From positions 1 to 57,398 of the IMG/VR virus record IMGVR_UViG_3300048611_000204: a stretch of DNA of 57,398 bases; one strand, written 5' to 3'. Both the position numbers and the translations under genes were made by a program. Below are positions 5,898-51,755 of this stretch, in pieces. Below the pieces are notes generated by a model that searched no databases, had not been told where the DNA came from, and saw only the letters and a program-made list of their open reading frames with translations. Within the stretch, counting starts at the first letter, position 1. Each line of letters starts with the position of its first letter. The stretch is from a virus (lineage: Duplodnaviria > Caudoviricetes).

Positions 5898-6127
5898 AAA
5901 GAAAATATTCTCAACCGGGAAAACCCCTGGGCAAGACCGCGGCAAAGGAAAAGCTTCTGATGCGGCACAAGTCCGGAGCGTCAAGCTCGCTGATCTTCAA
6001 AAACTACTCTGGACAAAAACCCTTTCACGGAGTGTCGCCCCCCGCGCGGGGGCGTGGATTGAAACTGCGGCGCACAGCGTCCGCAACAACGGGAGTTAGT
6101 CGCCCCCCGCGCGGGGGCGTGGATTGA
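5894..6127 (+). CDS. basic hypothetical protein whose 3' end runs into the CRISPR mini-array
   Basis: GAGGAGG RBS and ATGA overlap; stop is the TGA inside the second repeat. Confidence 0.5.
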   Translation: MKRKYSQPGKPLGKTAAKEKLLMRHKSGASSSLIFKNYSGQKPFHGVSPPARGRGLKLRRTASATTGVSRPPRGGVD

Positions 6128-6130
6128 AAC
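6034..6130 (+). CRISPR. CRISPR mini-array: 2 identical 32-nt type I-C-like repeats and one 33-nt spacer
   Basis: GTCGCCCCCCGCGCGGGGGCGTGGATTGAAAC at 6034-6065 and 6099-6130; spacer TGCGGCGCACAGCGTCCGCAACAACGGGAGTTA; hairpin plus ATTGAAAC end typical of I-C. Confidence 0.92.
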
Positions 6131-6162
6131 ATTAAATTGTTGGGCAGCGCGGAGATAAAACG

Positions 6163-6480
6163 ATGCGAAACAAAACCGATAAATGCCGTTATTTTACCGG
6201 GATACAAAACAAAACATGTGAGATCGGGATCGAATACCCAGTAAGCGATCTGCCTTGCCTCGGAGATCACCAAACTTGTGATAAGCACGAACCATTTTCG
6301 GCGGAAGAATTGGCCGCAAAGAAGGTGGCAATGGATCGACACATGGACTTGATGAGGCGCGGCTTGTCTGGTTGTTGTGAGGCGGAATTTAACACCAACC
6401 AAGTGCTGACCAGCGGGAAGTACAAAGGTCACGGCCCGCGTTTTTGTTCAAAATGTGGGAAGCTGGCATTCATGGTTTAG
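6163..6480 (+). CDS. Cys-rich hypothetical protein (cassette gene)
   Basis: GGAG RBS; bounded by GTTGGGC (6139-6145) and GCCCAAC (6483-6489). Confidence 0.75.
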   Translation: MRNKTDKCRYFTGIQNKTCEIGIEYPVSDLPCLGDHQTCDKHEPFSAEELAAKKVAMDRHMDLMRRGLSGCCEAEFNTNQVLTSGKYKGHGPRFCSKCGKLAFMV

Positions 6481-6482
6481 CA

Positions 6483-6504
6483 GCCCAACACCTTGGGTAA
6501 CTGG
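6483..6504 (-). other. attC-like half site (L'-R' part only)
   Basis: Minus strand CCAGTTACC-CAAGGT-GTTGGGC; partner arm absent. Confidence 0.55.
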
Positions 6505-6554
6505 GCGGGGAGACTGGCGAGAGGTGGCAGGCGGCTATGGAGTTTCACCGAGCC

Positions 6555-6622
6555 GATTAACGATCAAGGTAAGCGGTGAGGCGCGGCCTTTCGCGCCGAT
6601 CCGCTTGACCGCCTGGTTAGGG
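6555..6622 (-). other. integron attC-like site A
   Basis: Minus strand CCCTAAC-CAGGC-GGTCAAGCGG...CCGCTTACC-TTGATC-GTTAATC: 5/6-nt spacers, extra C in L''. Confidence 0.85.
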
Positions 6623-6710
6623 TGATTTTGCACCTCAGAAAAAAACACACATTGCGTATATAATTAGAATCAAGAAGAGGACAAAACAACCCGAACCAAG
6701 GAGAAAGACA

Positions 6711-6932
6711 ATGATCAAAGCATATGCAAGAGAAACCGGGGAACAATATCCACTGTGCAGCCTGTTGGGGGAGCCCGACCATGATGGACTCAGCACCGTA
6801 GCTCCGAAATGCCGAGAGGGGAATGTGGTTTGGGTAGCGGGCGAGCGATGCGTGGTGTATGTGTCTGACCAGGGTAAGGAATATTTGGTCCCGACCACAA
6901 TGGATGGCTCCTTTTATTTGGTCGAAGCATGA
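6711..6932 (+). CDS. hypothetical protein
   Basis: AAGGAG RBS. Confidence 0.7.
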   Translation: MIKAYARETGEQYPLCSLLGEPDHDGLSTVAPKCREGNVVWVAGERCVVYVSDQGKEYLVPTTMDGSFYLVEA

Positions 6933-7184
6933 CCGGCGAAGAGCAAGCGGAGCTTGGCGGCCAACGCTCGTATGTGGGCCATGTTGTCGGACATATCGCG
7001 TCAGATTGATTGGCATGGGCAACGGCTCACCCCGGAGGATTGGAAGATCATGTTTACCACATCCCTCAAACAACAAAGGGTAGTTCCGGGTTTGGAGGGT
7101 AGCGGCTTCGTCGTTTTGGGCGCTTCAACGTCCAAGATGAGTGTTGCGGAGTTGTCACTAAAACAAAAAAGGAGGATAAAATGA
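6933..7184 (+). pseudogene. NinB-family recombination protein fragment
   Basis: RSLAANARMWAMLSDISRQIDWHG..L...DWK..F...VVPGLEG.GFVVLGASTSKMSVAELS; both termini missing. Confidence 0.75.
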
Positions 7185-7390
7185 AGTGCGAAAACTGCGG
7201 CCATGAATGTTATAGGGACGAGGTTCACGTTGGAGTTGGGGTTGTTTCCGGCCCATGGGGGTGTCCTTGCGGATGGAGCGAGGATGATAGATACAATCTT
7301 CTGGATGGACCCAAGAAAACAGCGGAGGGTGGGACCATAGATCAGTATGGCGGGGTTATCCCGAATCGCGACAATGGAGGCATGAAATGA
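7181..7390 (+). CDS. small Cys-rich hypothetical protein
   Basis: AGGAGG RBS; CENC...CPCGW. Confidence 0.7.
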   Translation: MKCENCGHECYRDEVHVGVGVVSGPWGCPCGWSEDDRYNLLDGPKKTAEGGTIDQYGGVIPNRDNGGMK

Positions 7391-7565
7391 AAGAGCTATT
7401 TTGGAGGACGATCTTTCGAAGCACCCCTGCCAAGTGGATATGCTGCGGTTGCAATGGATGGGACACCCGGCGCGGAGCCGGCCATTGAGTACCACCGAAC
7501 CTATCGAGAAACACGGACGCCGAAGGCGTCCCTTGCAGCGCCTTGTTATGGCGCGGGAGACGGAG

Positions 7566-7802
7566 ATGGATAGGACGAAAAATCCAGACATTGAAGCTGG
7601 GTATAAATTTGCATCAGCCGCGATAGAGTCGTTGTGTAAAACGGGGATAGGCGAAGATCCCCTTCTTTTTTACGCATCCATGATTGGCACCCATTTGGGC
7701 AATATTGCGGCCCATATCGGCAAGGCTGCCACGTTGGGGATGATTGATTGTTTGCGGGAGCAAGTGGCGGCAACCCTGCCAGATAAAGGCAAGATGCAGT
7801 AG
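7566..7802 (+). CDS. hypothetical protein
   Basis: GGAG upstream of ATG 7566; ends just before attC-like site B. Confidence 0.5.
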   Translation: MDRTKNPDIEAGYKFASAAIESLCKTGIGEDPLLFYASMIGTHLGNIAAHIGKAATLGMIDCLREQVAATLPDKGKMQ

Positions 7803-7804
7803 CA

Positions 7805-7892
7805 CCATAACGGTAGATTTAAGCGGCGGCGGAGTACTGTTCGCCTGGATCGCTGCTGCATCTTCCGTCCGGCTTCAAATCGTTGGTTATGT
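7805..7892 (-). other. integron attC-like site B
   Basis: Minus strand ACATAAC...TTTGAAGC...GCTTAAA-TCTACC-GTTATGG; imperfect palindrome with one extra base in the left arm. Confidence 0.75.
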
Positions 7893-7908
7893 GCTCATTG
7901 GAGGTGAT

Positions 7909-8127: not shown

Positions 8128-8175
8128 TACACCAACAACCCCACGAGCCCGCGCTTTTACTGACTTGGAGGAACA

Positions 8176-8698: not shown

Positions 8699-8924
8699 GC
8701 CGATGTGCCAACATAACGAAGTGTCTATAAGGGAAATGTTCATCACCTCATATTGTTATGACAGGGAAGGTGGACAATGGACAGGTGGCGAAGGGATGAT
8801 GCCTGATCCGACAGGAAAACTCTATATCAAATGCCGAGAGTGCGGGCTAGATAGGAAGTATTACCGCCATCAAAAAAATATGCCCGCATGGCTGAGACGC
8901 CACTTGGAAGAACTAGGCATATAA
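8697..8924 (+). CDS. hypothetical protein (cassette gene)
   Basis: Fills the interval GTTATAT...ATATAAC; stop TAA lies in the core. Confidence 0.65.
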   Translation: MPMCQHNEVSIREMFITSYCYDREGGQWTGGEGMMPDPTGKLYIKCRECGLDRKYYRHQKNMPAWLRRHLEELGI

Positions 8925-8968
8925 CAAAAAGCACACCGGCCGCAGGTCCGGTGCTGCGGGAGTTGTCA
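8919..8968 (-). other. short or degenerate attC-like site E
   Basis: Minus strand TGACAAC-TCCC-GCAGCACCGG...CCGGTGTGC-TTTTT-GTTATAT; spacers 1 nt shorter than canonical. Confidence 0.5.
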
Positions 8969-9000
8969 AGCAATCCTTTACAACTGGGCGTGAGGAAATC

Positions 9001-10284: not shown

Positions 10285-10367
10285 GTTAATCGAAGGACCG
10301 GAGACGATCGATTGTGTGGGTTCTCGTCTCCGGTTCTTCTTCCCCTGTATTTTGACAAGGAGGCTCT

Positions 10368-11914: not shown

Positions 11915-12619
11915 GTGAAAAGATTCGCAGAATTGACCGACGCGGAAGTTATCGAGATCACCAACAACCAAGAGCGGGTTGAGCAGCTGATCGACCTGGA
12001 GTGCGCGTGGCAGGGCATCCCCTTGCTGCCGCCTCACCCCGGCAAGGAACCGGAACTGGAAGAGCTGGCCAATGACTTTCCCTACTACAAAGTCGGCAAC
12101 CTGTGTTTTGCCGATCGCAAAGAAGCCGAAGAAATCTTCGCCGCCGTCCAGAATATGCGCCTGGTCGACTCTGACTACTCGACGCATGTCGTGACCGATC
12201 TGAAGCCCGACGACTACAACTACCCCGAGCTCGAAGCCCGCGCGGGCGTGTCAAAGGAGAATTACAACGCCTATCATGAGCGCACTCAACTTGACCGTGA
12301 GCGCAAAACGGCGTGGCAGGAGCAGATGAACACCTACAACAAGATCGACAAGCAGCGCAGCGCAATTGTGCAGACCTTCTGGGATCGTTTTCACGCTATC
12401 CAGAGCGTTCGCGAACAGATCACCAATATCAACGCCGACCTTGAACGCTATCTGACTCTGGCCGAAGGAAACCAGAACGTAGCGATCAACTTCATGCTCA
12501 ATGCCCGCAAGGACGGCTCGCTTCAAGAAAGAGACGGCGCCCTGCAATATATCGACGAGAAGGGCGTCAGTCACGAAACTGGTATCGCGCGGCCCGACGA
12601 CGTGGTAGATAAATTTTAA
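11915..12619 (+). CDS. hypothetical protein
   Basis: AAGGAG RBS, GTG start, 234 aa. Confidence 0.8.
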   Translation: MKRFAELTDAEVIEITNNQERVEQLIDLECAWQGIPLLPPHPGKEPELEELANDFPYYKVGNLCFADRKEAEEIFAAVQNMRLVDSDYSTHVVTDLKPDDYNYPELEARAGVSKENYNAYHERTQLDRERKTAWQEQMNTYNKIDKQRSAIVQTFWDRFHAIQSVREQITNINADLERYLTLAEGNQNVAINFMLNARKDGSLQERDGALQYIDEKGVSHETGIARPDDVVDKF

Positions 12620-12675
12620 GACGTCATGTGATTTACCGGAGCAGCCTCGCAGGAGGCTGTTCTATTAAATTCCAT

Positions 12676-12707
12676 GTCGCTTCCCGCGCGAAAGCGTAGG
12701 TTGAAAC
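12676..12707 (+). CRISPR. solitary diverged type I-C-like repeat
   Basis: GTCGCTTCCCGCGCGAAAGCGTAGGTTGAAAC; 25/32 identical to the array repeat; two stem pairs changed compensatorily (C-G to T-A). Confidence 0.75.
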
Positions 12708-12746: not shown

Positions 12747-12956
12747 ATGAGCTTTTATTGCGGACTGTGTGAAAAGAAGTGCAGTTGCCACTCGGAGGGG
12801 CCGCGCGATGAGTATTGCGCCCTCAGCGACTGCTGCAACTTCACGGCGTTCTACGACAGGGAGTTGACCAAGGAAGTCGATCCGACCGAGATCAGAGCTG
12901 AGGAAGAGTACTGCGCGGCCGAGGCGAAATACGACGAAATGAAGGAGGATCTATGA
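12747..12956 (+). CDS. small Cys-rich hypothetical protein
   Basis: AAGGA RBS. Confidence 0.65.
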   Translation: MSFYCGLCEKKCSCHSEGPRDEYCALSDCCNFTAFYDRELTKEVDPTEIRAEEEYCAAEAKYDEMKEDL

Positions 12957-13321
12957 AGAAATTTGTCTATTCGGGCAAGTGCCGCCTGTGCGAATGTGGA
13001 AAAGAGACGGGCATATATGACACCAACGGCCGGAAACTTTTCACTGGTGATATCGTCATGATCTTCACCGAAGACGGCGATGGTCTTGTTGAACAGATGG
13101 CCGATCATTTGACGGTTGTCGTCGACGAAGGTTTCAAGCCATATACCGACGGTCAGCATGTCCCTCAGGATTCTCCAGACAACCCTTATATCGTGGGCAT
13201 TAAAGACATAATCCATCCGGACAAAATCTGGCGGGTTATCAGGGTCAAGGAACAGGCCGATGTTGTTCATGGTGAGCACTGGCGGGATTTTGGCTTCAGC
13301 TACCGCGAGGAAGCGGAATAA
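12953..13321 (+). CDS. hypothetical protein with YopX-like motif
   Basis: TGIYDTNGRKLFTGDIV; AGGAGG RBS. Confidence 0.65.
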   Translation: MKKFVYSGKCRLCECGKETGIYDTNGRKLFTGDIVMIFTEDGDGLVEQMADHLTVVVDEGFKPYTDGQHVPQDSPDNPYIVGIKDIIHPDKIWRVIRVKEQADVVHGEHWRDFGFSYREEAE

Positions 13322-13335
13322 CTTGGAAGGAAGCG

Positions 13336-13369
13336 GTCGCCCCCCCCGCGCGGGGGCGTGGATTGAAAC
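13336..13369 (+). CRISPR. solitary type I-C-like repeat
   Basis: GTCGCCCCCCCCGCGCGGGGGCGTGGATTGAAAC, the array repeat with two extra C. Confidence 0.88.
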
Positions 13370-19887: not shown

Positions 19888-19910
19888 AGCCAACGATGCT
19901 ATCAGCGGAC
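19888..19910 (-). other. attC/attI-like half site
   Basis: Minus strand GTCCGCTGATAGCATC-GTTGGCT; no partner arm found. Confidence 0.45.
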
Positions 19911-20030
19911 GGCGACGGACCGCCCGCGAATCACTGAATTATTTAAGGATAATCAATAATGGTCAGCCCGAGATTGAACGGCATGCGGTCGTTCAATCGG
20001 GCCGATCAATTAACAAGGAGGATTTACTAG

Positions 20031-21119: not shown

Positions 21120-21241
21120 ACGGCCTGGCCGTGTCCACCGCAATTAAATTAATATCTACACAGATTTAACCGAGAAAAGGGATGTATCATGATTTCAGTT
21201 GAACGATTAGCTAACGGGCTTGCGGCCCTACGGAGGAGAAC

Positions 21242-21613
21242 ATGGGAATTGGAGAGAGATTTGAATTCGAGAAGACGGGCCGAATAGACCCAGAGCGTAG
21301 CAAGTCCGCCGTGCAGCGTTTGGTTAGCGCCTTTTCGGAGCACGACTGTCTCTGCTGCGGACCGTTTGAGGGCGACTTTGGTTCCCCGGATGACCGCATC
21401 TTGAAAGACAAAATGGTGACAGCCCGCAAGAGCGGGGAATGCCACCTGTGCGGCCAGCAGATACAGCCGAAAGAGCGGATCAGGACCATGGCCGCTGTGT
21501 TCGACGGTGAATTGATGTCGTACCGCTGGTGCAACGCCTGCTGTGCAGCCATGGCAAAGAGCCTGTACGACGATGGCGAAGCATGGGAAGACCGCTCAGC
21601 ATTGAGGCGCTAA
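21242..21613 (+). CDS. Cys-rich hypothetical protein
   Basis: GGAGGAG RBS; stop TAA in the CGCTAAC core of site J. Confidence 0.75.
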   Translation: MGIGERFEFEKTGRIDPERSKSAVQRLVSAFSEHDCLCCGPFEGDFGSPDDRILKDKMVTARKSGECHLCGQQIQPKERIRTMAAVFDGELMSYRWCNACCAAMAKSLYDDGEAWEDRSALRR

Positions 21614-28770: not shown

Positions 28771-31700
28771 TTATCTGAGGATGCCGAGTTCCTTCATCTT
28801 TATCCTGAAAGCCTGCTTCTCGTCGCTCGACTTGTCCCGCCGCGACATCATGTTGCTGTACTTCTTGAACATCAGCGGCCGCAGGACTTTCTTTTCGGAG
28901 TCGGTCGCGTATTGCCATGTGTCGATCGCGCCCTGCAGGGTCAGGCCAGTCATGGCCGAGACAAGGGGGGATTTGTAGCGCGGGTTCTTTTTGTCGCCGA
29001 TGCGCGGCAGCCTGGCGATCGCGTTGTCGTATTTACGTTTCGACAGTTCCCCGTCCCGAAGCATCCGGTTCAGCTCGGCCTTATCCCCCTGCCCGTAGGC
29101 GTAGGCGGCCCGCTTGACCTTGTCCCTGACGGTCATCTCGTCTTCGCTGGTCGCCCGCCCCTTGAACTCCTTCCGTCTGGTTTCGAACGCCTTGTTGGCG
29201 GCCGCCGAGCGCTTGGCCACCGCCGGCGCCGAGGTCAGGCCGAGCAGCGAGTAGGTGGTCAGCTTCGGGTTAAAGCCCTTGCTGCGCCAATCGCCGTAGG
29301 CGGAAGACATGGAGATCGGCGCGATCGAAAAGATGTGGGTCAGGGAGTCGAACGCCTGCTTGCCGACGTTGTCGTTGCTGTCCCGGATCGTCACCCCCCG
29401 AAAATTCTCCCCGCTGAACGCTTCGAAGGCGTTGCCGACGATGCTGTTGACCCGGCCGGAGACCATCTTGGTCGGCTCCATGTGCGTGCCGAGGATGCCG
29501 AGGTGGTGGAAGATCTTGTAGGCTTCGGTCACGTAGGACGGAATTGAGATGCGCGCCTGCGGATCGTTGGCGTCGACCCGCGGGAACAGCATTTTGGTCA
29601 GCAACGGAACGTCTTCATCGTCCGGGACTTCCCCGCCGCCGCCGAGCCCGACCCCGATGTTGTAGGCGAGTGAGATCATGCCGGCCGCCATGAAGTGCGC
29701 GATAACGGCGTTGACCCCCCACCAGCCTTTTTCGGTCAGCTGGTAGTTGACCTTCTCGCTGTCCTTGGCGCCGAGGTCCTTGACCGCGAACCAGCCGAGT
29801 TTGCCGACGTCGACGCCCGCCTTGGCCAGCGATTTCCACGAACCGGTGAACCAGGTGAAGGATCTGAACAGAAATTGCAGGGCCGACTTATAGGACGGTA
29901 ACATCCACTGGTTCGTCCAGTTGACTTCCCCGAAGCGGTCCTCGACAAACTTCATGGTGTTGTGGGCGATTTCTTCCTTGCTGACTTGCCCGGCGGCGAT
30001 CTGGTCCTTCTGCCGTTCCAGCCGCTGAGTATACTCCCTGATCCAGACGCCCAGCTTGACCTTCGGGATGGTTTCTTCCATCAGCCAGGCGGTCGTCCCC
30101 TGCAGCGAGGCGAAGGCCATCGTCTTGAACATGGCGGCCACCGGCTGGTCCGGGTTGTTGTTGATAAGGGTCCGGTGGACGTCCTTGACCGAGCCCACCA
30201 TGGCGGACAGGTTGGCCTTCGGCTGGCTGATGTTCAGCTCGCCGTCTTTCATCTCGAATTGGGCTTCGCCTTTGGAGTATTTCATCTTGCCCAGGGCGTG
30301 GGTGCTTGAGCGCAGACTGATGTCCTGATGCAGATCCCCGCCGACCAGATAGAATTGCCGAATAATGTCGAGCACGTCCGCGTTGCTGGTCCCGAACAGT
30401 TTGTCGGCCTTGGCGGCGAAGGCTTCGTCCCCGGCTAATTCCGGATTCTCCATCAATTTTTTGACCAGGGCGGCGATGTCCCGGGAGTCGTTGAGCGCAG
30501 TGACCGGGTTGTAGCCGCTGAGTTTGGCCAACCCCTTCTTCTTCTGCATGGTCCACGAAGAGGTCGAGGCCGTCAGCTCCTGGCCGATGGTAAAGGCGTG
30601 GAAGAGAGACATGGCGAATTCGATGGCGGTCGAGTGGTTCTTTATCTTGAGCGCCTGGGCGCCGGACACCCCGAGCAACTTGCCGTTGCGGAAACCGTCC
30701 TTGGCGATTACAACCCGAGTCATGCGGGCGAGGTCTTTTTTGAAATAAACCCGGGCAATCGTCTCCTGCTTTTCACTGGCGGCGGTCGCGGGGTTGACCA
30801 GGTACTGCGCCTCGGGGTTTTGCTGCTCCAGCCGGCGCATGTGCTCTTCGGCCTTTTCCCGGGTGATGTAGACTTCGATCTCACTGAACTCTCCGTCTTC
30901 TGTCACTTCATTTACCGCGTAACCGGTCTTGTCTTGCGATTTTTCCTTTATCCCTTCCTTGATCTCGAAAGCGGCGTCGTCGACCCATTCATACCCGGCC
31001 TTGGTCGCCTCGAAGTGGTCGGTGAAGATCTTGGCCTGGCCCGCTTCGATCGCCTCGTCCTTCATCTGTGTCAGGGCGATCAGCTTGTAGGCGTCCTTGA
31101 TATACTGCTCGATGACCTTGTTCGGGTTGATGTGGTCGTAAGCGAGCCCTTCCTGTTCGCGGATTTCGGCCGTGGTTCGGTCCATGGCCTTTTCTTTGGT
31201 GAAGTGCTTCGACCCCTGCAGTCGAGAGGTCTCGGAGAGCAGTACATCGGAGATGTCTTCGTCAAGCGCGATCCCGCTCTTGCGCCAGCGCAGCGATTGT
31301 CCGTAGTGCGTGGCGAGCTGTGGCAGCTCAGGATCGATTTTCTTGAGCTCGGCATAGATAGAGGCGGCGAGCTTCTGATAGTCGGCGTAGGCGGAGATTA
31401 CGGCGTCTGAGTAGCCATAGTCTTTGGCCCGCTGCCGGCCCGCTTCGCTCCGCACGTCGATTGGCTCGACCGGAGTCTTGACATACTGCTGCTCCGCCAG
31501 CTTGAGAATCGCTTCGGTGTAGGTCTTCTGATTGATTTTTCTGTTTTGAAGATCCTTCTGCGCCTGCTCCATCCTGGCGGTGACCGCCTTGTTCTCGGTC
31601 ATTTCAATACCGCGGACGAACAGATCGTGCATCTCTTCGAGGCGGGTGTTGCTCATCTCCTCGAAGGCCGCTTCGTGCTTCTGCAACACGCGGTAGTAGG

Positions 31701-34700
31701 CCTGAGTCGCTTCGAGGTTGCCGAGGAAGACCGCCTTGTTGGAGATCTTGACGGCGACCGGGTCCCCGAGGAAGTCGGCGAAGATACCCTGCGGCATTTG
31801 ATGTTTGAGCCAGTCGAGAGTAGACAGCAGAATCCGCTCGATGCTGCTCATCACGTCGCGATGGTTGCTGGTCCCTTTGGGGAAGATCTTCTTCCAGATT
31901 CCCTGCAGCCATTTGCCGGGGGTGGCCAGGGTTTGTTTGACCTCGTTGTAGCTGCGCAGGCCGAGGCTGATCTGGTAGCGGACATCTTTATGCTGACGCT
32001 CCGTCGAGTTGAGAGCGCCGCCGACCCGCCCCTGGTTGACGAACTCGCGCCCGCCGATCATGTCGCTCACCAGTTCATAGGCCGCTAGCATGTCGGTAGA
32101 CCCGATCAGACTCTTGTTCTCGTAATTGGTGAAGGCCATGGGCATCTTGCTGATTCCGTCGAGCTTGACGATGTTCTCCAGCAGGCGGGTGGCCAGATCC
32201 CCGGCGATTTTGGTGCCGGCGAAGTCCTTGGCCAGATGCTCGTAGAAGGGGACCTGCCCCATGACCTTGGCGAATAGTTCGGCCTGCAGCTCCTCTTCGG
32301 CCCGCTCGTAGGACAGCCCCTCTTCCGTGGCGATCCGCTCTATGTGGTCTTCCCACCTGCTCCCGGACACCAGTTCTTTGATCCCGGCCGTGAACGCCTT
32401 ATGCTCGGCGGGCTTGGCCTTGTTGACCACGTGATGAAAGAGTTCGTGGCTGAAAACCCGATGGACCGATAATTCCTTGTTGGTGTTGATGACAATCTTG
32501 GCCCGGCCGTCGGACGCTTCGCCGATGTAGCGGGTCCGGTAGTAGGGGTCGCTGACGATGACCAGGTCGGCGTCGAAGGCCTTACTGACCAGCTCGTAAA
32601 AGCCGCGGGCGACCTTGTTGCGGATGCGACCGACCGCCTCAACCTCCAGTTCAGCCTCGAAGCCCTGCGGGTTGTCGTTGCGCTCGAACAGATCGGCGGA
32701 CGCCGGCTTGAGCCCGGCTTCATCCTTGACCGTGGCGAAGCTGCGCTCCTCGTCGATGGCAGCCTGGGTCCCCCTGCCGCTCATCAGCATCTCCAACTCG
32801 CGCAAAGCCCGGAAGCGAATTTTCTGCATCCCGTCGAGACGGGCGTAGTTCTCGCCAGCCTGCCGCCGGTCCGCCGCTTTCGGGTTGGTGGGGTATATTT
32901 TTTGGTACAGCCCCTTCTCGTGGTCGGACAGTTCGTGGACGACCAGCCCCCGAACGTCGCCGTCGAGAGCCTTGCGGTATTTCTCCTGATGCGCGGCGCG
33001 CTCGACCGCTTCGATCCGCCTGGCGATGGTGCTGACCAATCTGCCGAGGTCCGATCCGTTCTGCACGTAAGCGACGTACATGTCGGCGGACGTCCAGCCG
33101 CTGCCCTGGTATTTCTCGGCCAGGTCCTCGAAGGTCTTGGCCGAGACCGCATTCTTCTGCCGGTAGTGGGCCAGGGAAAGGGCGGTCGAGATTTTCAGCA
33201 GCTCGGAGTTCAGTTCGTCCTTGATGAATTTGCGATCCTTCGCGGGAATCCGCTTGTCGAAGGCGTTGGTGTGCAGCTTCCACAGACGCCTGCGGTATTG
33301 CTTGAAGTCCTCACCTCGCTGGTTGGCAACCTGTTCTATGGCCCCGGCGCGTCCGGCCGCCTGCAGCATCTCAAGGCTGTTCTCCTGACGGTCGAAACCT
33401 TCGATCATGTCCAGCTTGCCGACGTCCAGCACCTGCAGAGCGGGTCCATGTTTCTTGCGCAGCCCGGCCACCTCGCCGTTTTCCATCTCGGCCAGCCGCG
33501 GGCTGGTGTAGAAGCTTTCGTATTCCTTCTTCATCGTCGGATGATTCTGTTTGGTGTTGATCACGAACGGATCAGCTTTCAGTTGGGCCAGACGCTCAGC
33601 CGCCTTGTCCACCGCAACCAGCTCGGAACGCAGCAGCTGCTTTTTGGTCACCGGGTCGGTCGTCGAGTAGAGGATCTTCTGTTTGCCCCTGTCCTGCCAG
33701 AGTCTGCCGGTGGGATAGGTCACCCTGACCAGCGCCGCGTAGTTGCGCCGGGTGCCGGTCCGCGCGCTGACGTTGTCGACTTCCGTGACGCCCGGCTCCT
33801 CGCTGCGGATGTCGATGTTGTCGATGTCGTAGGGGCGGATGTCTTCCGTAAGATAGTGGGTGTTGACCGGGTAAAGGGCGATCAAAGTCTCGCTGATGAG
33901 CGCCTTCTGTTTAGCTTGGGGCAGAGCCCTGAACTCGTCGGTGGCGCCGTTGCGGACGAAGGACATGCGGTGCGCTATCTCGTCGACGTCCAACACGCGG
34001 CTGCTCATGTTCTTCCCCAAAAAGGAAAGGTCATTGAGAACCCTGAGAATGGAAGGGATGTTTTCCATACCCAGACGAATGTCGTTGTCTTTCGCGCTTC
34101 GCTTCTCGACGAAGGCCCGGTAGCTGGCTTCGTTTTGCGCCTGTTGTCTGCGCTCGGCCTCGGCCCCTTCGGCCCTCTTCTGCGCGATGTCCCGCCCGCT
34201 TTTGGTCCGGTTGAGAATCTGTTCCTTGGTCCAACTTTCGGTCTTGTCTTTCCGGCCAGTACCGGCGACTTTCTTTACTTCCGGTGGGCGCAGGACCCGT
34301 TCTTCGTAATCCGGGTCGCTGACCGGGTCGTAGTCTTCGTCGACGGCGACGTTCTTGTTCTCCAGCGGGTAGAAAACTTCTTCGTCGATAATCGCATCGA
34401 GCAGCTTCGGCGTGATCTCCGCGTCGATCTCTTCCTTGATCTTCTGGCGAATGACCTCGTCGCTCGCGTTCCGGTTATTCTGAATGATGTCGGTAATCCG
34501 CTTGGGCCTGGTCAGCAGGATCGACAGCGCCTTCTTGTTGACTCGCGCTTGGCCAGGGTTATCTTTCTTAAATCGCGTCAGTAGCTTGACCACTTCTGGG
34601 GCATTGGCCGCAAGATCTTGTTCGGCGGGGGTTGAGGCTCCGCGCTGCAAAACCTTCGCCGCCTGCTCCGCGGAGCTTTCCTGACTGAAATCTTCGACCT

Positions 34701-37700
34701 CGGAGAGATACGCATTCTCGAAATGGCTGAACAGCGTCTCTAGGGCGTTCATCTTACTTTCGGTCATTTTGCTCAACGACTTGAAGGCCTCGTCGTCGCT
34801 CGGCATTTTTGACGTGACCAGTCGTTCTTCCCGGGCGATGAATCTGGCGACGTCCTTGAGGCTTGCGCCGTGCTGTTCGGCGAGGGCGTAGAGTTCAAAG
34901 ACCATCATCTCGGCCGGTGTCGCGTAGTTGCCCGCTTTAATATCCGCAATCCGCTTTCCCACCGGTCTGGCGTCCTTGTTCTTTCCTTCGAGACGAGACT
35001 TGAACAGGGCGGAAGCGATCTTTCTGAGCGATACTTCGTTGCTTTTCTGGACAGTATCGCGCACCTGCTGCTTCTCTTCCCTGGTCAGCGGGTCGAGATT
35101 CGCTTCATCCACTGGTGAGGTGTCGTTGGCGGCGAGCTTGCGGCTCAGTGTCTTCTTAAAAGCTTGGTCGTCAAAGGCACTTCTGATCGTCTTGATGGCG
35201 TTGACGCGGCCGCTGGTCTCGTCGATGAACATGCCGCTTTTTACGTCGTAGTCGGCGTCGACGGAGCGCATGCCGCTCGAATCCTTCCTGGCTCCATCGC
35301 CCGTCCGCTCGACGCCGTCCTCGGCATAAGTCTCGTCGTAATCAGTCTCGTCAAACATCTGATGATCGATGTCGGGATTGGCGAGTTTGTAGTTGCTGCC
35401 GGTCTCCTGGTTGAAACCTTCGATGAAGTTGTTCTGCAGAATCTTCTGCTGCTGGGCGTCGCTCATGGTGCCCGGCGCGACCGATTCGATCAGGTCGAAC
35501 TCGTCCTTACCGAGCTTCGGAGACGAGGACACGGTGTCGCCCTTGCCCATGATCGCGGTGTAGCCGTCTTCCAGAGCCTGGTCGAGGGTCGGAAGGTCTG
35601 TTGCTTCTTTTTTTGCTGCAAAGGTCTTCTGATAAACCTCGTCGATGGCTTTCTTTCCCTTAGCGGAAAGTTGTCTGGTCCCGATACCGGCAAAATTATT
35701 TGTCAATGTAGGTGTTCCGGTGGATTTGAAATGTTTTCCATCGTATTTAAACCAGCTGTCTCTCTGTTGGTCGAAAACATAGACAGGTCTCCCGGAATCG
35801 ATAGCCATCTGAACCGCCCATCCGGTTCCGCCTTTAACGGTTTTTGCTCCTTTTTCAATCTCACCGACAGCAAAGACGCCGTCAGAGTTATAGACCTGCC
35901 AGGCGTTTCTCCTCAGAAGATTATTGACGTAGTCATTCGAGGTCGGAAACCTTCTTTTCAGCGCCAGATTTGCTTTTTGAATAAGCACGTCAGCTTTCTT
36001 CAAAAGTTCTTTCTTTATCGGGGTATTCCCTTTCGGCGTCTTCTGGCCTTCCGCATGATAATGTTTGCTGTTGATGCCATACGCCACACCAGCATCACCC
36101 CAGTAGGAATCACTGCCCAAGGCACCACCGGAGTGATTTACCACCGGCTGTGTCCTGTCCAGGAGATTGTCTTCTTCGACCTGTTTGGAAGAAAATTGAT
36201 TAACAGGATCACCGGCGTTCTTCTGCGCTTCCTGCGCGATCGTCTGCTCCTCGATGGAAAGGACTTCGTTAGGGCTGACAGCGGTACTGCGGAAGGCGTC
36301 GAGATTCGGGTCGATATCCTGCGTCAAAGAGACGTACTGCTCCTGCAGGGAAAGCCTTTTCGCTTCATCGTCCTCGGTCCTGATCTGCTCAAGCAGAGAT
36401 TTCAACTGCTGCTGTGCGCCCTGCCCTTTGCGAATAATCGGCTGCGCTTCTCCGGCAGTTCCCTCCTGAATGGTGTCGAGCGCTTCGGCCAGCGCCGGGT
36501 CGTCGGCCGTCTCAAGATCCTGGACCTCGTTGTTGTTCTTTCTCAGTACCCATTCGCCGCGCTCGTTGAGCAGAATCCCCTTCATCTGGTTCCACATCTG
36601 CAGGGCGTATTTCTTGACGTTCTGACCGAACTGTTGGACCAAAGCGGAGGTGAATTGAGCGGCGGTCTTGACCTTGCCGTGGATGTCGTAAACCGCCTGC
36701 ATGAACACGCCGTGATCCTCGACGCCGAGTTCGGCAGCGGCCCTGGTCACGGACGAAGGGGCGGAAACCGCTTCCTGAATCTTGGCTGCGGCGATCTGCT
36801 CATCCATCGCTTCACCGGCTGCCTGGGCCTGTGCTTGCGTCTGCTGGGCGTTCTGCTGCTGTTCCATGGTAGGAGTCGCGCCAGCGTCCAGAGAGGCGGG
36901 AGCGAGCGTTTCTCCGACAGCGGCTTGCTGCCCGACTTCAGCCTGCCCGGTCAGCTCCTTGAGCCGTTGCTGCTTGGCGACTTGAAGATTATTGCTGAGG
37001 GTCTGTTTGAGGTTAACTCCGCCGCCCATTCCGGCGCCGACTATCAACCCCATCCCGGCCGCTTCTTTTACCCCTTCGTTCCATTCCTTCCCAAGGGCGA
37101 TGTTTTGCAGAATCGTCTCTTGAGCGGATTGCGGAAGCTCTTCCAGAAAGCCTTCAGTCACTATCCCGCCGAGCGCTTGTTTTAAGTAACTCTTGCGTGT
37201 TGCTTCCGAGGTTTTCCCGCTGCCCCAGACGTCAACGTCCGCAAACCCGAGCTTGTTGGCGATCTTGCCGCTCAGTGCGCTGGCACCCATGGTCAGCGCC
37301 CCGGTCGCTCCGGAAAGAAGAAGCTGCTTCCCGGTAATGGTCCCGTCTTCTGTTTCTCCCCTGATCCCCTCGGCGGCCGAACCCATTGCGAGAATCCCTT
37401 CCGAGATGGCGCTGGCGATGGGCCGAGAGAGTTTTGTTGCTCCGCTCAAGAGCTTGCCGCCTCCGCCCGTGGCAACGATCGAAGGAGCAGACTGGATAAA
37501 CGCGCCAACTGCGGTGGAAGGGTTTTCAACAACCGAACCGAGACCGCCGACAAAACTTTCATCGAAAGCCCTACTGACTTCCGCCTGCTCTTTTTGCCGC
37601 TCCGGAGAATAGCCCCTGGCCAGAATATCAGAGCTTTTTTCCTGCATGAATTCGGCTTTTGATTCAGGGGTAAGCGGACCCCAGATCTGTTCACCAAGGG

Positions 37701-37929
37701 CAGCGACAACATTTTTACCGGCAGATTTGATCAGCTTGCCCGCCAGGCCAAACGTCGGGACGTTGGTCACTCCGATAGCCGAGTCGGCAAGAGCGATTCC
37801 GCCTGTGGCCAGATCGATTCCGGCGTCTTTCGCCCTGTCCCAAGCACTTGCCTCCGGAATCGGAGTCAGGGTTCTGGAGTTGTTGAGAATGTGGTCAATC
37901 AGCTTCTTGTCGCGCGGCAGGTTCGCCAT
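28771..37929 (-). CDS. giant internal virion / DNA-ejection polyvalent protein
   Basis: 3052 aa at the end of the virion block; Gly/Ala-rich N-terminus; SLOG-like segment; HELFH...E zincin motif. Confidence 0.8.
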   Translation of the reverse strand: MANLPRDKKLIDHILNNSRTLTPIPEASAWDRAKDAGIDLATGGIALADSAIGVTNVPTFGLAGKLIKSAGKNVVAALGEQIWGPLTPESKAEFMQEKSSDILARGYSPERQKEQAEVSRAFDESFVGGLGSVVENPSTAVGAFIQSAPSIVATGGGGKLLSGATKLSRPIASAISEGILAMGSAAEGIRGETEDGTITGKQLLLSGATGALTMGASALSGKIANKLGFADVDVWGSGKTSEATRKSYLKQALGGIVTEGFLEELPQSAQETILQNIALGKEWNEGVKEAAGMGLIVGAGMGGGVNLKQTLSNNLQVAKQQRLKELTGQAEVGQQAAVGETLAPASLDAGATPTMEQQQNAQQTQAQAQAAGEAMDEQIAAAKIQEAVSAPSSVTRAAAELGVEDHGVFMQAVYDIHGKVKTAAQFTSALVQQFGQNVKKYALQMWNQMKGILLNERGEWVLRKNNNEVQDLETADDPALAEALDTIQEGTAGEAQPIIRKGQGAQQQLKSLLEQIRTEDDEAKRLSLQEQYVSLTQDIDPNLDAFRSTAVSPNEVLSIEEQTIAQEAQKNAGDPVNQFSSKQVEEDNLLDRTQPVVNHSGGALGSDSYWGDAGVAYGINSKHYHAEGQKTPKGNTPIKKELLKKADVLIQKANLALKRRFPTSNDYVNNLLRRNAWQVYNSDGVFAVGEIEKGAKTVKGGTGWAVQMAIDSGRPVYVFDQQRDSWFKYDGKHFKSTGTPTLTNNFAGIGTRQLSAKGKKAIDEVYQKTFAAKKEATDLPTLDQALEDGYTAIMGKGDTVSSSPKLGKDEFDLIESVAPGTMSDAQQQKILQNNFIEGFNQETGSNYKLANPDIDHQMFDETDYDETYAEDGVERTGDGARKDSSGMRSVDADYDVKSGMFIDETSGRVNAIKTIRSAFDDQAFKKTLSRKLAANDTSPVDEANLDPLTREEKQQVRDTVQKSNEVSLRKIASALFKSRLEGKNKDARPVGKRIADIKAGNYATPAEMMVFELYALAEQHGASLKDVARFIAREERLVTSKMPSDDEAFKSLSKMTESKMNALETLFSHFENAYLSEVEDFSQESSAEQAAKVLQRGASTPAEQDLAANAPEVVKLLTRFKKDNPGQARVNKKALSILLTRPKRITDIIQNNRNASDEVIRQKIKEEIDAEITPKLLDAIIDEEVFYPLENKNVAVDEDYDPVSDPDYEERVLRPPEVKKVAGTGRKDKTESWTKEQILNRTKSGRDIAQKRAEGAEAERRQQAQNEASYRAFVEKRSAKDNDIRLGMENIPSILRVLNDLSFLGKNMSSRVLDVDEIAHRMSFVRNGATDEFRALPQAKQKALISETLIALYPVNTHYLTEDIRPYDIDNIDIRSEEPGVTEVDNVSARTGTRRNYAALVRVTYPTGRLWQDRGKQKILYSTTDPVTKKQLLRSELVAVDKAAERLAQLKADPFVINTKQNHPTMKKEYESFYTSPRLAEMENGEVAGLRKKHGPALQVLDVGKLDMIEGFDRQENSLEMLQAAGRAGAIEQVANQRGEDFKQYRRRLWKLHTNAFDKRIPAKDRKFIKDELNSELLKISTALSLAHYRQKNAVSAKTFEDLAEKYQGSGWTSADMYVAYVQNGSDLGRLVSTIARRIEAVERAAHQEKYRKALDGDVRGLVVHELSDHEKGLYQKIYPTNPKAADRRQAGENYARLDGMQKIRFRALRELEMLMSGRGTQAAIDEERSFATVKDEAGLKPASADLFERNDNPQGFEAELEVEAVGRIRNKVARGFYELVSKAFDADLVIVSDPYYRTRYIGEASDGRAKIVINTNKELSVHRVFSHELFHHVVNKAKPAEHKAFTAGIKELVSGSRWEDHIERIATEEGLSYERAEEELQAELFAKVMGQVPFYEHLAKDFAGTKIAGDLATRLLENIVKLDGISKMPMAFTNYENKSLIGSTDMLAAYELVSDMIGGREFVNQGRVGGALNSTERQHKDVRYQISLGLRSYNEVKQTLATPGKWLQGIWKKIFPKGTSNHRDVMSSIERILLSTLDWLKHQMPQGIFADFLGDPVAVKISNKAVFLGNLEATQAYYRVLQKHEAAFEEMSNTRLEEMHDLFVRGIEMTENKAVTARMEQAQKDLQNRKINQKTYTEAILKLAEQQYVKTPVEPIDVRSEAGRQRAKDYGYSDAVISAYADYQKLAASIYAELKKIDPELPQLATHYGQSLRWRKSGIALDEDISDVLLSETSRLQGSKHFTKEKAMDRTTAEIREQEGLAYDHINPNKVIEQYIKDAYKLIALTQMKDEAIEAGQAKIFTDHFEATKAGYEWVDDAAFEIKEGIKEKSQDKTGYAVNEVTEDGEFSEIEVYITREKAEEHMRRLEQQNPEAQYLVNPATAASEKQETIARVYFKKDLARMTRVVIAKDGFRNGKLLGVSGAQALKIKNHSTAIEFAMSLFHAFTIGQELTASTSSWTMQKKKGLAKLSGYNPVTALNDSRDIAALVKKLMENPELAGDEAFAAKADKLFGTSNADVLDIIRQFYLVGGDLHQDISLRSSTHALGKMKYSKGEAQFEMKDGELNISQPKANLSAMVGSVKDVHRTLINNNPDQPVAAMFKTMAFASLQGTTAWLMEETIPKVKLGVWIREYTQRLERQKDQIAAGQVSKEEIAHNTMKFVEDRFGEVNWTNQWMLPSYKSALQFLFRSFTWFTGSWKSLAKAGVDVGKLGWFAVKDLGAKDSEKVNYQLTEKGWWGVNAVIAHFMAAGMISLAYNIGVGLGGGGEVPDDEDVPLLTKMLFPRVDANDPQARISIPSYVTEAYKIFHHLGILGTHMEPTKMVSGRVNSIVGNAFEAFSGENFRGVTIRDSNDNVGKQAFDSLTHIFSIAPISMSSAYGDWRSKGFNPKLTTYSLLGLTSAPAVAKRSAAANKAFETRRKEFKGRATSEDEMTVRDKVKRAAYAYGQGDKAELNRMLRDGELSKRKYDNAIARLPRIGDKKNPRYKSPLVSAMTGLTLQGAIDTWQYATDSEKKVLRPLMFKKYSNMMSRRDKSSDEKQAFRIKMKELGILR

Positions 37930-48522: not shown

Positions 48523-48532
48523 AACAATCCTT

Positions 48533-49066: not shown

Positions 49067-49142
49067 TGCTGGTATCCTCGTGGAAATGACAAGGGGGAGC
49101 CGTTTCCGACTCCCCGTTGCCGGGTGTATTTCAGGCGATCAA

Positions 49143-49439
49143 TCAGCCTTCCTGGGTGGTGTAACCGGCGACCGGCATTTCGACGAAGACCAGAGACACG
49201 TCCCCGGCGCCGGAGGCCGTCACGCAGAGATCTTCGGTGCTCACGACCTTAATCGGGAAGGTCGTAACGTCGGCGCCCGAGTCGATATTCACCGCGGTAG
49301 TGTTGGCGCCGTGATGATAGACACCAAGGACCAGATAGTCCCCGCCGGAGAGCAGGACGTCGTTGTCAGCGGTGACCGAGAAACGAGCCGTGCGGGGCAG
49401 TGAACCGACAACGGATTTTGCGTAGCGAGTAGTAGCCAT
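49143..49439 (-). CDS. small virion protein
   Basis: AAGGAG RBS; directly after capsid gene. Confidence 0.6.
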   Translation of the reverse strand: MATTRYAKSVVGSLPRTARFSVTADNDVLLSGGDYLVLGVYHHGANTTAVNIDSGADVTTFPIKVVSTEDLCVTASGAGDVSLVFVEMPVAGYTTQEG

Positions 49440-49496
49440 GAGTTTCAATTCTCCTTGTCAGGCAAGCGGCGAGTTGCCCCGCCGCTCACCGGTTAA

Positions 49497-50543
49497 TTAC
49501 GCGTTCTTGATGAAGTCCACGCCGATCATGTTTTCTTTGATGATGCTGGAGCCGTAGACCTGCAGACCCTGCATCAGCTTGCCCCAGCCGAACGGGTTGT
49601 CGATGATCCGGCTTTCCGTAATCTGGGTGGCGAAGGTCACCGCTACCTTGCTGCCGAAAATAACCGAGGTGCTGTCCACCGCCTGGGTGGAGGTCGGCAG
49701 GTTGTTGGAAAACAGCAGCTCAAAACGGTCGATGCCGGGGACCTGACCGGTCATCAGCGGGGTTTTGTCCTGGCCGGTCGCGTAGACCTGGGCGAAGGTG
49801 CCGCCGATGTCCTTGAGCGCCTGCATGGTCCAGGAAGGGAAGATGATGAAGCGACCTTTCTCCGGAGCGTTGTTCTCGTCGAGCAGGCGGCCGTAGAGCA
49901 GGCACTGTTTGACGATATTGGCCGAGGTGGCGGCCGAGACAGCGGCGTCGGAGAGCCCGAGAGTGGACCCGGCGGTGGTCCCGGACGCTACGGTAGTGCC
50001 TTTGGAGGTGGTGCAGCCGGCGACCAGCGCGCCCTTGGCGAGGGTGTAGTTGGAGAAGGCCAGACCGTCGGCGTCGTAGCCGGTAATGGTGGTCTTGGCC
50101 TTGCTGGCGGCAGCGGCTCCGGCGGCGGCGATCGAGGTCAGACCGTTGAGGTCGATGACCTGCTTCATCTGCTCGGCGGCGTCGTCGCCCCACTCGTTCA
50201 TCAGGTCGAGATCGGACTGGAACTCGTCGATCTTGTCGATATTGAAGCTGAAGCCCTCGCCCTGATCGATCTTCAGGGTGACGTAGGGGCTCTCAGGATT
50301 CTGTACCGGCAAGACCATACCCTTCTTGTATTTGAAGGTTTCGATCTTCGGCCGGGTGCGAATGTAGACGGTGTCTCCCTGCTCCTTGATGTCTCCTTCG
50401 TAGTCGGTGTTGGCGATCTTGGTGAAGACCGTCTGCGGGTAGAACTTCTTGACCAGCAGGGCGGAATAGACCGCGGGGATGTACTGGCTGGAAGAGCCGG
50501 TACTATGATCGGGCGCGCCAGAGGCGACGGGAAAAACGGCCAT
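49497..50543 (-). CDS. major capsid protein
   Basis: IP.VYS..L..KFY...IANTDYEG.I...GDTV.IR..P; G..M.GLQVYG. Confidence 0.88.
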   Translation of the reverse strand: MAVFPVASGAPDHSTGSSSQYIPAVYSALLVKKFYPQTVFTKIANTDYEGDIKEQGDTVYIRTRPKIETFKYKKGMVLPVQNPESPYVTLKIDQGEGFSFNIDKIDEFQSDLDLMNEWGDDAAEQMKQVIDLNGLTSIAAAGAAAASKAKTTITGYDADGLAFSNYTLAKGALVAGCTTSKGTTVASGTTAGSTLGLSDAAVSAATSANIVKQCLLYGRLLDENNAPEKGRFIIFPSWTMQALKDIGGTFAQVYATGQDKTPLMTGQVPGIDRFELLFSNNLPTSTQAVDSTSVIFGSKVAVTFATQITESRIIDNPFGWGKLMQGLQVYGSSIIKENMIGVDFIKNA

Positions 50544-50568
50544 GGGAAAATCTCCTTGAGATTAAAGG

Positions 50569-51579
50569 TTATTTGTAGCGCCCCTGTCCGGGGGCCAGCA
50601 TCAGATCGTTCCAGAGTTTCAACGATTCTTCCTGCGAATATTTGCCGGCGCGATCATCCCTTTCGAACTGCTGCTGTGTCGCTTTTGTCCAGATAATCGG
50701 TTCTGGACCGGAGGTGGGGACACTTTGCTGCGTAGCGCGGGAAGGGGCGATGAGCGCCTGTTTGTTCTTGTCCTCGACGGGCGGCTTGACCACGGCCGTT
50801 GGGGCAGCCGGGAGATCGGCCGGTGGCGCGGACGACTGGTAGTAGAGGTTAAAGAGGGTCGCCATCTTCTCGTCGTTCAGATTCTCATAAAACAGGCGGA
50901 ACAGCTGACCGTTGGTGTACAGGCCGCTCGGGTCAGGCTGGTCGAGGAATGCGATGAAGCCCTCGTCCTTGCCTTCCCAGGCGTCGCGCCAGTTGCCTTC
51001 GATTGAGCTGTCCAGGCTGCTTGCGAACTGATCCTCGGCCGACGCGGCCTGGCTCTGCCTGACCGAGTTCAACGTCTCCTGAACGGGGTTAATGGACTTT
51101 TCGATCAACGGGGTAAATTCTTCGGTGATGAGCTCCCGCAGGTTGCTGATGTAGTCTTCCCCGTAATCTTCCCGGAACTGCGCCAGTTTGGCGTTTTCTT
51201 TCGGCTTCTCGGGTTCGGGGGGATCGTGCTTGGCAACTTCGCGGTTGACGCTTTCGAGCACCTCTTGTTTGAATTGCTTGATCTCCGACTGCAGACGCGG
51301 GACTTCGGCGTTGTATTTCCCCTTGAGGCTGGAATGCTGTGAAGAGAGCTTGGTGTGCTCGTTTTCCAGTTTCTCGTAACGCTCCTGCCAGTTCACCTCC
51401 TCGACGGCCGGGGTCTCAGGCACTTCAGGTGTTTCGGTTGGATCGGTATCGGCGGGTTCGGCGCCGGCCGCGGGCGTCTCGGAAGCGGGTTCTTCGGGAG
51501 GTGCTTCTCTGGGAAACATTTCTCCGTGGAGTTTGGCTGCCATCTCTGCTGCTTCCGAAACTTGTTTTGGAATTGCCAT
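50569..51579 (-). CDS. capsid scaffolding protein
   Basis: Acidic/Pro N-terminus, LKGKYNAEVP, ends A..QGR; upstream of MCP. Confidence 0.75.
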   Translation of the reverse strand: MAIPKQVSEAAEMAAKLHGEMFPREAPPEEPASETPAAGAEPADTDPTETPEVPETPAVEEVNWQERYEKLENEHTKLSSQHSSLKGKYNAEVPRLQSEIKQFKQEVLESVNREVAKHDPPEPEKPKENAKLAQFREDYGEDYISNLRELITEEFTPLIEKSINPVQETLNSVRQSQAASAEDQFASSLDSSIEGNWRDAWEGKDEGFIAFLDQPDPSGLYTNGQLFRLFYENLNDEKMATLFNLYYQSSAPPADLPAAPTAVVKPPVEDKNKQALIAPSRATQQSVPTSGPEPIIWTKATQQQFERDDRAGKYSQEESLKLWNDLMLAPGQGRYK

Positions 51580-51628
51580 GATCTTCATCCTTTCGGGGGC
51601 CGGCTGTACGGTTTCCCCTGGTTGGAGT

Positions 51629-51678
51629 AAAAAAAAGGGCCGCAGGCAAAGGGAAAATCCCTTTACACTACGGCCCCT
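51629..51678 (-). terminator. terminator-like hairpin before scaffold gene
   Basis: Minus strand GGGCCG...CGGCCC followed by T8. Confidence 0.55.
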
Positions 51679-51722
51679 TGGTTCAGGTTAGCCAAATATT
51701 TTGTTGTCGTTTAGCTCTTGAT

Positions 51723-51755
51723 GTTTCAATCCACGCCCCCGCTCGGGGAGGCGAC
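51723..51755 (-). CRISPR. solitary type I-C-like repeat
   Basis: Minus strand GTCGCCTCCCCGAGCGGGGGCGTGGATTGAAAC. Confidence 0.85.

Follow-up and report, generated by a model that had tools for sequence, protein, structure and literature searches.

Several kinds of viral elements built from parts of CRISPR systems are already published, including solitary repeat units (SRUs), the RNA anti-CRISPR (Racr) RacrIC1, viral mini-arrays, and Cracr arrays, and the elements reported here are not a new kind of system. We analyzed IMG/VR record IMGVR_UViG_3300048611_000204, one linear viral contig of 57,398 bp with an estimated completeness of 83%, which was taken whole and is referred to below as the window. 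This bacterial tailed phage carries five type I-C repeats and no detected cas genes; two of the repeats enclose a single spacer in a mini-array, and the other three (SRU3, SRU4, and SRU5) stand alone. New here is the match of the spacer, at all 33 of its bases, in two viral contigs in which the matched site is flanked by TTT. The genome is also somewhat richer than usual, since it combines three solitary copies with a mini-array that has an identified target.

Virus-borne mini-CRISPR arrays in conflicts between viruses were described by Medvedeva et al. (2019; PMC6858448). In those cases, as at the present locus, a viral array lacking cas genes carries one or two spacers, has a spacer match in another virus of the same community, and would need host Cas proteins to act. 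The published mini-arrays belong to archaeal Sulfolobales viruses in which close relatives target each other, whereas the present one belongs to a bacterial phage, is of type I-C, and has a largely unrelated phage as its target. Compared with the criteria for virus-borne mini-arrays, a leader like that of host arrays is missing here. Camara-Wilpert et al. (2023; PMC10651486) catalogued 2,103 SRUs on viral sequences, including IMG/VR3, and described RacrIC1, which lies 11 nt past acrIC5 on a bicistronic RNA of which each part inhibits type I-C. The solitary copies of our phage are likewise intergenic repeats of host type in a virus without cas genes, and the position of SRU5 directly behind the small gene orf80, in one apparent unit, resembles the RacrIC1 arrangement. 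Unlike the gene ahead of RacrIC1, orf80 is not a detectable AcrIC5 relative, and unlike the RacrIC1 case, three solitary copies and a targeting mini-array share one 57-kb genome. In the Cracr/crlRNA systems (Liu et al., bioRxiv 10.1101/2024.10.29.618823), phage repeat-spacer units, including type I-C units, take up host Cas proteins in competition with the host's CRISPR RNAs (crRNAs), a feature in common with what is proposed below; their spacers, however, partially match host cas or toxin promoters, whereas the spacer here matches a phage perfectly. As an environmental case, the record clearly illustrates a bacterial phage that combines a putative guide against a named rival with lone repeats of decoy type. 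This pairing poses the question of how one phage both uses and blunts the same host CRISPR system, and it can be approached with constructs from this genome: the mini-array, the three variants of the repeat, and orf80, an orphan 80-aa gene that is a candidate anti-CRISPR.

The mini-array and the phage matched by its spacer

The 33-nt spacer matched at 33/33 bases in two IMG/VR viral contigs, one of 34.3 kb that is 90% complete (G006) and one of 37.7 kb that has terminal repeats and is 100% complete (G007), and had no match in 185,579 species genomes. In G007, the protospacer occupies positions 1108-1140, between a helix-turn-helix gene and the next gene, directly ahead of the ribosome-binding site of the latter, and its 5' flank is TTT. 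In the type I-C system of Legionella, TTT as a protospacer-adjacent motif (PAM) ranked second both by its use when spacers were acquired and by its efficiency of interference, with 95-99.5% protection, and the same report cites a TTT PAM as functional in B. halodurans (PMC5602111). Because a perfect protospacer with a usable PAM is present in a co-occurring phage, the mini-array reads as a guide against a competitor phage and not as a decoy. The sequence anatomy of the repeat loci, the protospacer and its PAM, and the co-occurrence of the phages and of arrays with the same repeat are direct observations. Four sediment DNA runs contained variants of our phage. The protospacer was found in two of the four, where a contig of run X4 shows its flank and a contig of run X5 bridges it, and the G007-type allele of the module shared by the two phages was seen in all four. 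The depths of the repeat bins in these runs summed to hundreds or thousands, and the flanking sequences were many and distinct, which fits an abundance of arrays with this repeat in the same sediments.

G007 is a different phage, with protein-level matches for only four open reading frames (ORFs) of ours. The shared module is a 327-bp segment of 97% identity (window 7153-7479, G007 4075-4401), accompanied by a further shared stretch at window 7486-7568, and several short intergenic motifs or shorter matches are also common to both genomes. The 97%-identical segment points to a probable recent exchange between the phage and its targeted rival, and the segment together with the short motifs indicates that both phages draw on one gene pool. 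The segment covers a 69-aa Cys-rich ORF (7181-7390) whose product is 96% identical to its G007 counterpart. One of the short motifs is a 44-nt hairpin-containing intergenic sequence (window 8921-8964) that recurs in G007 at 5862-5905, 37214-37181, and 30934-30892, and further short motifs in common with G007 lie at window 19901-19937, 21201-21240, and 21299-21328. These may be shared terminator or promoter cassettes. Reciprocal targeting was not seen, as the 3' 14-nt motif, the only part of the repeat searched for in G007, had no match there.

Two entries in the program-made ORF list, 5770-6099 and 5894-6127, run through the mini-array. The GC content at third codon positions (GC3) of the pre-array part of ORF 5894-6127 is 0.57, against 0.67 and 0.68 in the two genes directly upstream, and some neighboring ORFs that we counted as genes have a GC3 no higher than 0.57. 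Both read-through ORFs were treated as probably spurious. The next gene starts at 6163, 32 nt past the second repeat, and viral contigs gave no match to the 24 nt that precede the mini-array.

The evidence tips slightly toward an explanation in which this cas-less phage uses type I-C parts to exploit the Cas proteins of its host, with the mini-array serving as a guide and solitary repeats as Racr-type decoys. The mini-array would be transcribed early, together with the early genes, and host Cas5d would cut the transcript to yield one crRNA, which would load host Cascade-Cas3 against phages of the G006/G007 type; the outcome would be heterotypic superinfection exclusion. SRU4 and SRU5 would form the tail ends of transcripts from small accessory genes and act as Racr-type RNAs, bound and cut by Cas5d, on which Cas proteins (Cas5d, Cas7) would assemble although these RNAs have nothing to guide to, thereby diluting the guides of the host. 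SRU5 would do so from a self-contained insert of promoter, gene, repeat, and terminator, of which the 80-aa product may be a protein anti-CRISPR, and SRU3 would be an older copy in decay, outside the decoy role. We infer transcription, Cas5d cutting, Cascade loading, and any effect on immunity. The solitary repeats may plausibly serve as decoys. The original prediction had taken the five repeats as decoys or as Cas5d processing sites; its decoy reading suits SRU4 and SRU5 in view of their stem, handle, and small-gene neighbors, but not the mini-array, whose two repeats would belong to a guide, or SRU3, which looks decayed.

Five type I-C repeats and the surroundings of the solitary copies

Type I-C repeats are ~32 nt long, form a GC-rich stem-loop, and end in a conserved 3' ...ATTGAAAC tail that serves as an orientation marker. 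Searching both strands for exact copies and copies with up to three mismatches, followed by an edit-distance scan, yielded five copies in the window and none further (Table 1). Beyond these five, edit distances up to 9 gave only palindromic self-matches of the repeats, matches at distance 10 were chance-like, and none of 100 shuffled windows contained a repeat match. The consensus repeat folds into a 7-bp GC hairpin (-15.1 kcal/mol) followed by an 11-nt tail with 3' GGATTGAAAC, and the canonical fold and handle are kept in four of the five copies, SRU3 being the exception. Rfam gave a CRISPR-DR9 match on the plus strand at a mini-array repeat; all CRISPR-DR9 matches were sub-threshold, and there were none of any kind at the gathering thresholds. 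The exact 32-mer is present in at least 120 bacterial genome stretches from many phyla, and among the matches listed, many records are delta-proteobacterial or Desulfobacterota metagenome-assembled genomes. In two of the genomes (G010 and G008), a repeat array and a Csd1 (cas8c) match are ~6-7 kb apart and share contig and strand, and Cas8c (Pfam Cas_Csd1) is encoded in four of the five genomes checked among those with the exact repeat. Because the same repeat forms arrays near cas8c in bacterial genomes, we assign it to type I-C. The scans and this assignment bear out the original prediction of five type I-C repeats, and its claim that cas genes are missing also held, since Pfam profiles for Csd1 (Cas8c), Cas5d, Cas7, and Cas1 had no match in this ~83% complete record, the unsequenced part of which may differ.

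Table 1. Positions in the window of the repeat copies and of the features adjoining them
Feature	Position	Strand	Remarks
Mini-array repeat 1, 32 nt	6034-6065	+	7-bp GC stem, 3' ...GGATTGAAAC handle
Mini-array spacer, 33 nt	6066-6098	+	Protospacer 33/33 in G006 and G007
Mini-array repeat 2, 32 nt	6099-6130	+	Same sequence as repeat 1
SRU3, solitary repeat, 32 nt	12676-12707	+	7 substitutions, all transitions
orf69 (Cys-rich) and orf122 (weak YopX-like match)	12747-13321	+	Bracketed by SRU3 and SRU4
Leader-like 24 nt upstream of SRU4	13312-13335	+	Resembles the leader-proximal junction of host I-C arrays
SRU4, solitary repeat, 34 nt	13336-13369	+	Two extra C in the C-run
Intrinsic terminator	51629-51679	-	Long GC hairpin, then T8; begins 43 nt past SRU5
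SRU5, solitary repeat, 33 nt	51723-51755	-	Edit distance 2: one inserted base and one loop change
orf80, orphan 80-aa gene	51758-52000	-	GGAG ribosome-binding site, GC3 0.83
Promoter-like site, TTGACA-18 nt-GAGAAT	52057-52086	-	10/12 matches; inside orf83, upstream of orf80; consensus match only

In bacterial arrays, the host leader lies 5' of the GTCGC...GAAAC reading, and therefore the transcribed orientation of the repeat is fixed. The plus-strand copies sit within the plus-strand replication/early block of the phage, and SRU5, the minus-strand copy, has the portal-like and major-head genes on either side in the virion block of that strand. The predicted agreement of orientation with the local genes was thus found at all four loci; with a chance probability of ~0.06, this co-directionality alone is weak evidence. 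Position is stronger evidence, as all three solitary copies are intergenic, whereas only 7.2% of the 32-mer positions fall wholly between genes (p ~4e-4, on a crude gene map). SRU3 and SRU4 are separated by 628 nt, too great a distance for an array. All three solitary copies are thus intergenic copies of a known repeat, unlinked to other repeats or cas genes, which are the features that define SRUs. The 3' 14-nt motif of the repeat was likewise without a match in the records of five relatives.

SRU5 starts 2 nt past the stop codon of orf80 and folds into a 7-bp stem with one G-U pair, its 11-nt 3' handle unchanged. In the consensus scan, a promoter-like site was found 300-330 nt upstream of SRU5, ahead of orf80, and the intrinsic terminator closes the orf80-SRU5 unit ahead of p339 and the major-head genes; the criterion applied for a Racr was a promoter no more than ~250 bp upstream, or else an upstream acr gene transcribed together with the repeat. 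A fragment of 98.5% identity that comes from a different sample (L189) retains both orf80 and SRU5, the latter with the same sequence. Six relatives (62-72% terminase identity) retain the order portal, orf83, p339, and major head protein. An orf80 homologue was found in none of 51 related loci, and the genes flanking the orf80-SRU5 site are at most ~80 nt apart in four of the six syntenic relatives; therefore, the orf80-SRU5 unit is an insertion with apparent start and stop signals of its own. Its absence from the relatives, like that of the two genes bracketed by SRU3 and SRU4, was observed directly. The orf80 product had no relative in Pfam, PHROGs, or PDB sequences, and a word-indexed protein search returned only itself. 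Its position alone makes orf80 a candidate anti-CRISPR. An exhaustive HMMER search gave a weak similarity (E 4e-12, ~31% identity) to a ~65-aa domain that occurs as nine repeats in a 2,337-aa protein. The orf80 product also contains an HCxAGK motif that drew a language-model search toward phosphatase fragments, with Atlas scores of ~0.8 that are uninformative.

SRU3 is separated by 56 nt from the stop codon of gene 11915-12619 upstream and by 39 nt from the orf69 start downstream, and a strong hairpin precedes it. This 11-bp hairpin (12639-12665; fold z-score -3.75) directly follows the gene and resembles the stem of a terminator without its T-run. In the repeat itself, pairs 6-18 and 7-17 have changed from C-G to U-A with compensation, so the two compensatory stem changes claimed in the original prediction are literally there; however, the copy also has a broken third pair and two altered handle bases, and its best predicted fold is no longer the canonical hairpin. 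The pattern looks like that of an older, decaying copy and not of a tuned one. A variant-strain contig in run X3 bridges SRU3. The first 22 nt of SRU3 gave one chance coding match only among metagenome contigs. The possibility that SRU3 is a typical terminal array repeat was rejected, since terminal repeats of host arrays decay at the 3' end whereas SRU3 has changed in the stem. The syntenic relative G001 has the flanking genes conserved, but between them it has no homologue of orf69 or orf122, and no repeat either. The orf122 product had no match in viral contigs, the 234-aa neighbor protein had none in metagenome contigs, and the small flanking proteins other than that of orf80 had no relatives among PDB sequences.

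SRU4 starts 14 nt past the stop codon of orf122; its extra C bases lengthen the loop and leave the 7-bp stem and 11-nt 3' handle intact, and one variant contig in run X4 is without the two extra bases. A leader-proximal position weight matrix (PWM) was built from 24 host leaders, with host scores taken leave-one-out. The 24 nt upstream of SRU4 scored 7.04 bits against a host median of 7.08, within the top 0.13% of window positions (nhmmer E 0.0027), and the other four phage repeat sites scored negative, the region upstream of the mini-array at -7.3 bits. Since these 24 nt score like a host leader-repeat junction, SRU4 may, as the score suggests, have been picked up from a host array at its leader end. 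Near SRU3 or SRU4, the consensus scan found no plus-strand promoter-like site. We also considered the solitary repeats as carriers of a downstream guide and rejected this, because the first 24 nt past SRU3, SRU4, and SRU5 matched only their own strain in viral contigs and gave no local matches; the stretch behind the second mini-array repeat was left out of that viral-contig scan and was included in the PAM and seed search described below.

Weighing the explanations

The solitary repeats could instead be functionless scars, with only the mini-array active, which we consider unlikely but deserving of real weight. Such scars would have arisen through spacer loss from a mini-array by repeat-repeat recombination, or as recombination junctions with host arrays or other phages during the gain of cassettes. 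Every solitary copy borders DNA without a homologue in relatives, no copy is conserved among those relatives, SRU3 combines seven transitions with a lost canonical fold, the length of the SRU4 C-run depends on the strain, and the host-like leader-repeat junction at SRU4 would be expected of a captured array start. Against this, the changes in SRU4 and SRU5 are confined to the 5' arm or the loop, leaving the 7-bp stem and the last 19 nt untouched; the three copies are all intergenic and co-directional; SRU5 lies within a tidy promoter-to-terminator unit; and solitary type I-C repeats of such a kind have measured anti-CRISPR activity in published work (PMC10651486). The distances between repeats and genes (2 nt past the orf80 stop, 14 nt past the orf122 stop, 32 nt ahead of the start at 6163, and 39 nt ahead of the orf69 start), together with the co-directionality of every copy with its local genes, would also suit Cas5d-dependent RNA processing sites that tie accessory expression to host Cas5d. 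A cut would either release the mRNA of the upstream small gene bearing a protective hairpin at its 3' end or give downstream mRNAs altered 5' ends. This geometry is inconsistent, however, as SRU5 is followed by a terminator rather than a gene; furthermore, the phage is listed in no RNA run, and no natural precedent turned up in the papers cited here, no search having been aimed at one. Processing is accordingly judged improbable.

The leader-like score upstream of SRU4, the 9.6 bits scored on the same PWM by a solitary repeat in another virus (L125), and a mini-array with exactly one spacer whose PAM is also used by the type I-C adaptation machinery (PMC5602111) would be compatible with solitary repeats that are empty arrays, into which host Cas1-Cas2 inserts spacers from co-infecting phages, the mini-array being the product of one such event. 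We hold this to be very improbable: the region upstream of the mini-array has the negative score given above, the conserved -53 leader motif is missing at the mini-array and at all phage loci, and no alternative spacers were seen, although the variant-strain contigs stop at 6034 and cannot be traced through the mini-array. Rated as quite improbable was a cas-less adaptive defence against rival phages owned by the phage, which would take over the host system, not simply jam it, and keep a memory of its rivals: host Cas1-Cas2 would fill empty one-repeat arrays, with the mini-array as a filled case, and all five transcripts would replace host guides in Cascade with RNAs of the phage's choosing. 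Viral Cracr arrays, including two-spacer type I-C arrays, have been described (bioRxiv 10.1101/2024.10.29.618823), and elements of that type would be regulatory RNAs that silence a host cas promoter, or the promoter of a CRISPR-guarding toxin, through a repeat and a partially matching pseudo-spacer that direct Cascade there. The target of the spacer here is a full 33/33 match in a phage and not a partial one. In a PAM and seed search of 752 kb around 120 arrays with this repeat, which are host-array loci and not the cas promoters of the true host, the only 10-nt matches were two, at chance level, and the one inspected lay inside a coding frame that appeared queD-like by eye; the sequences downstream of the solitary repeats gave one 8-9-nt seed match, likewise at chance level. 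A Cracr-type role is therefore extremely improbable.

The explanation that we favor, exploitation of host Cas proteins through a guide and Racr-type decoys, also has observations weighing against it. The consensus scan found no sigma-70-like promoter within ~500 nt upstream of the mini-array, the host -53 leader motif was not found within 200 nt upstream of it, and this conserved motif was likewise found upstream of none of the four phage loci; with no host-like leader or promoter-like site ahead of it, the mini-array would therefore be read through from early genes. The runs listed for this phage are sediment DNA runs only, with no RNA run among them. The degradation of SRU3 and the variation of the SRU4 C-run among strains both fit neutral drift. 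Among 51 terminase-linked loci of relatives, no repeat-like copy was found, and conservation is limited to the 98.5%-identical strain. The orf80 product showed no detectable relation to a known anti-CRISPR in PHROGs, Pfam, PDB, or protein searches, and its single-sequence AlphaFold model was poor (predicted local distance difference test score 62). With regard to the identity of the host, arrays with this repeat contributed 1157 spacers, not one of which fully matched the phage. A phage that uses host Cascade-Cas3 on a rival also has less reason to disable it, and the two proposed roles are in tension; it could be resolved, for one, if the five RNAs all simply took the place of host guides in Cascade. 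The further suggestion of the original prediction, that the copies address one or more host type I-C systems, was not supported, as the exact SRU3 and SRU5 sequences each had no match as a repeat in the 185,579 species genomes.

Other carriers of the repeat and the gene layout of the record

Other viral contigs carry the same exact repeat, as solitary copies and in a mini-array. In L128 (IMG/VR, 41.7 kb), a solitary copy with one mismatch and a two-repeat mini-array with a 36-nt spacer lie on one strand (4333-5229, minus); between them are an ORF that, from a by-eye reading of its translation, resembles a gene for a single-stranded DNA-binding protein, and a small ORF that enters the mini-array. 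The leaders of the host arrays (200 nt before the first repeats, loci L001-L120) contain a motif of approximately GGTTCGCGGAAA at -52 to -56 in 18 of 25 cases from many phyla, the -53 motif referred to above, and also a TTA-containing box near -15. The motif may be a conserved type I-C leader signal.

The plus-strand replication/early block of the phage extends over ~2.1-24.7 kb and encodes a peptide deformylase, a replication initiator, a primase/helicase, a methyltransferase domain, an exonuclease, and a resolvase. Genes on the minus strand occupy the remainder, with products that include the small and large terminase, a portal-like protein, the major head protein, and head-completion and tail proteins. 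No tRNA genes were found in the record, and the first 25 kb, the part submitted, gave zero megablast matches in the GenBank phage collection. The virion block contains a 3,052-aa ORF (28771-37929, minus) that is partially conserved in the relatives G001 and G002. At the right end of the record, adjoining the small terminase gene, a 33-nt motif occurs three times with a spacing of 40-44 nt (57258-57374), and a separate 36-nt motif also occurs three times (102-137, 345-380, and 10292-10327). Both of these repeated motifs may be packaging or regulatory sites.

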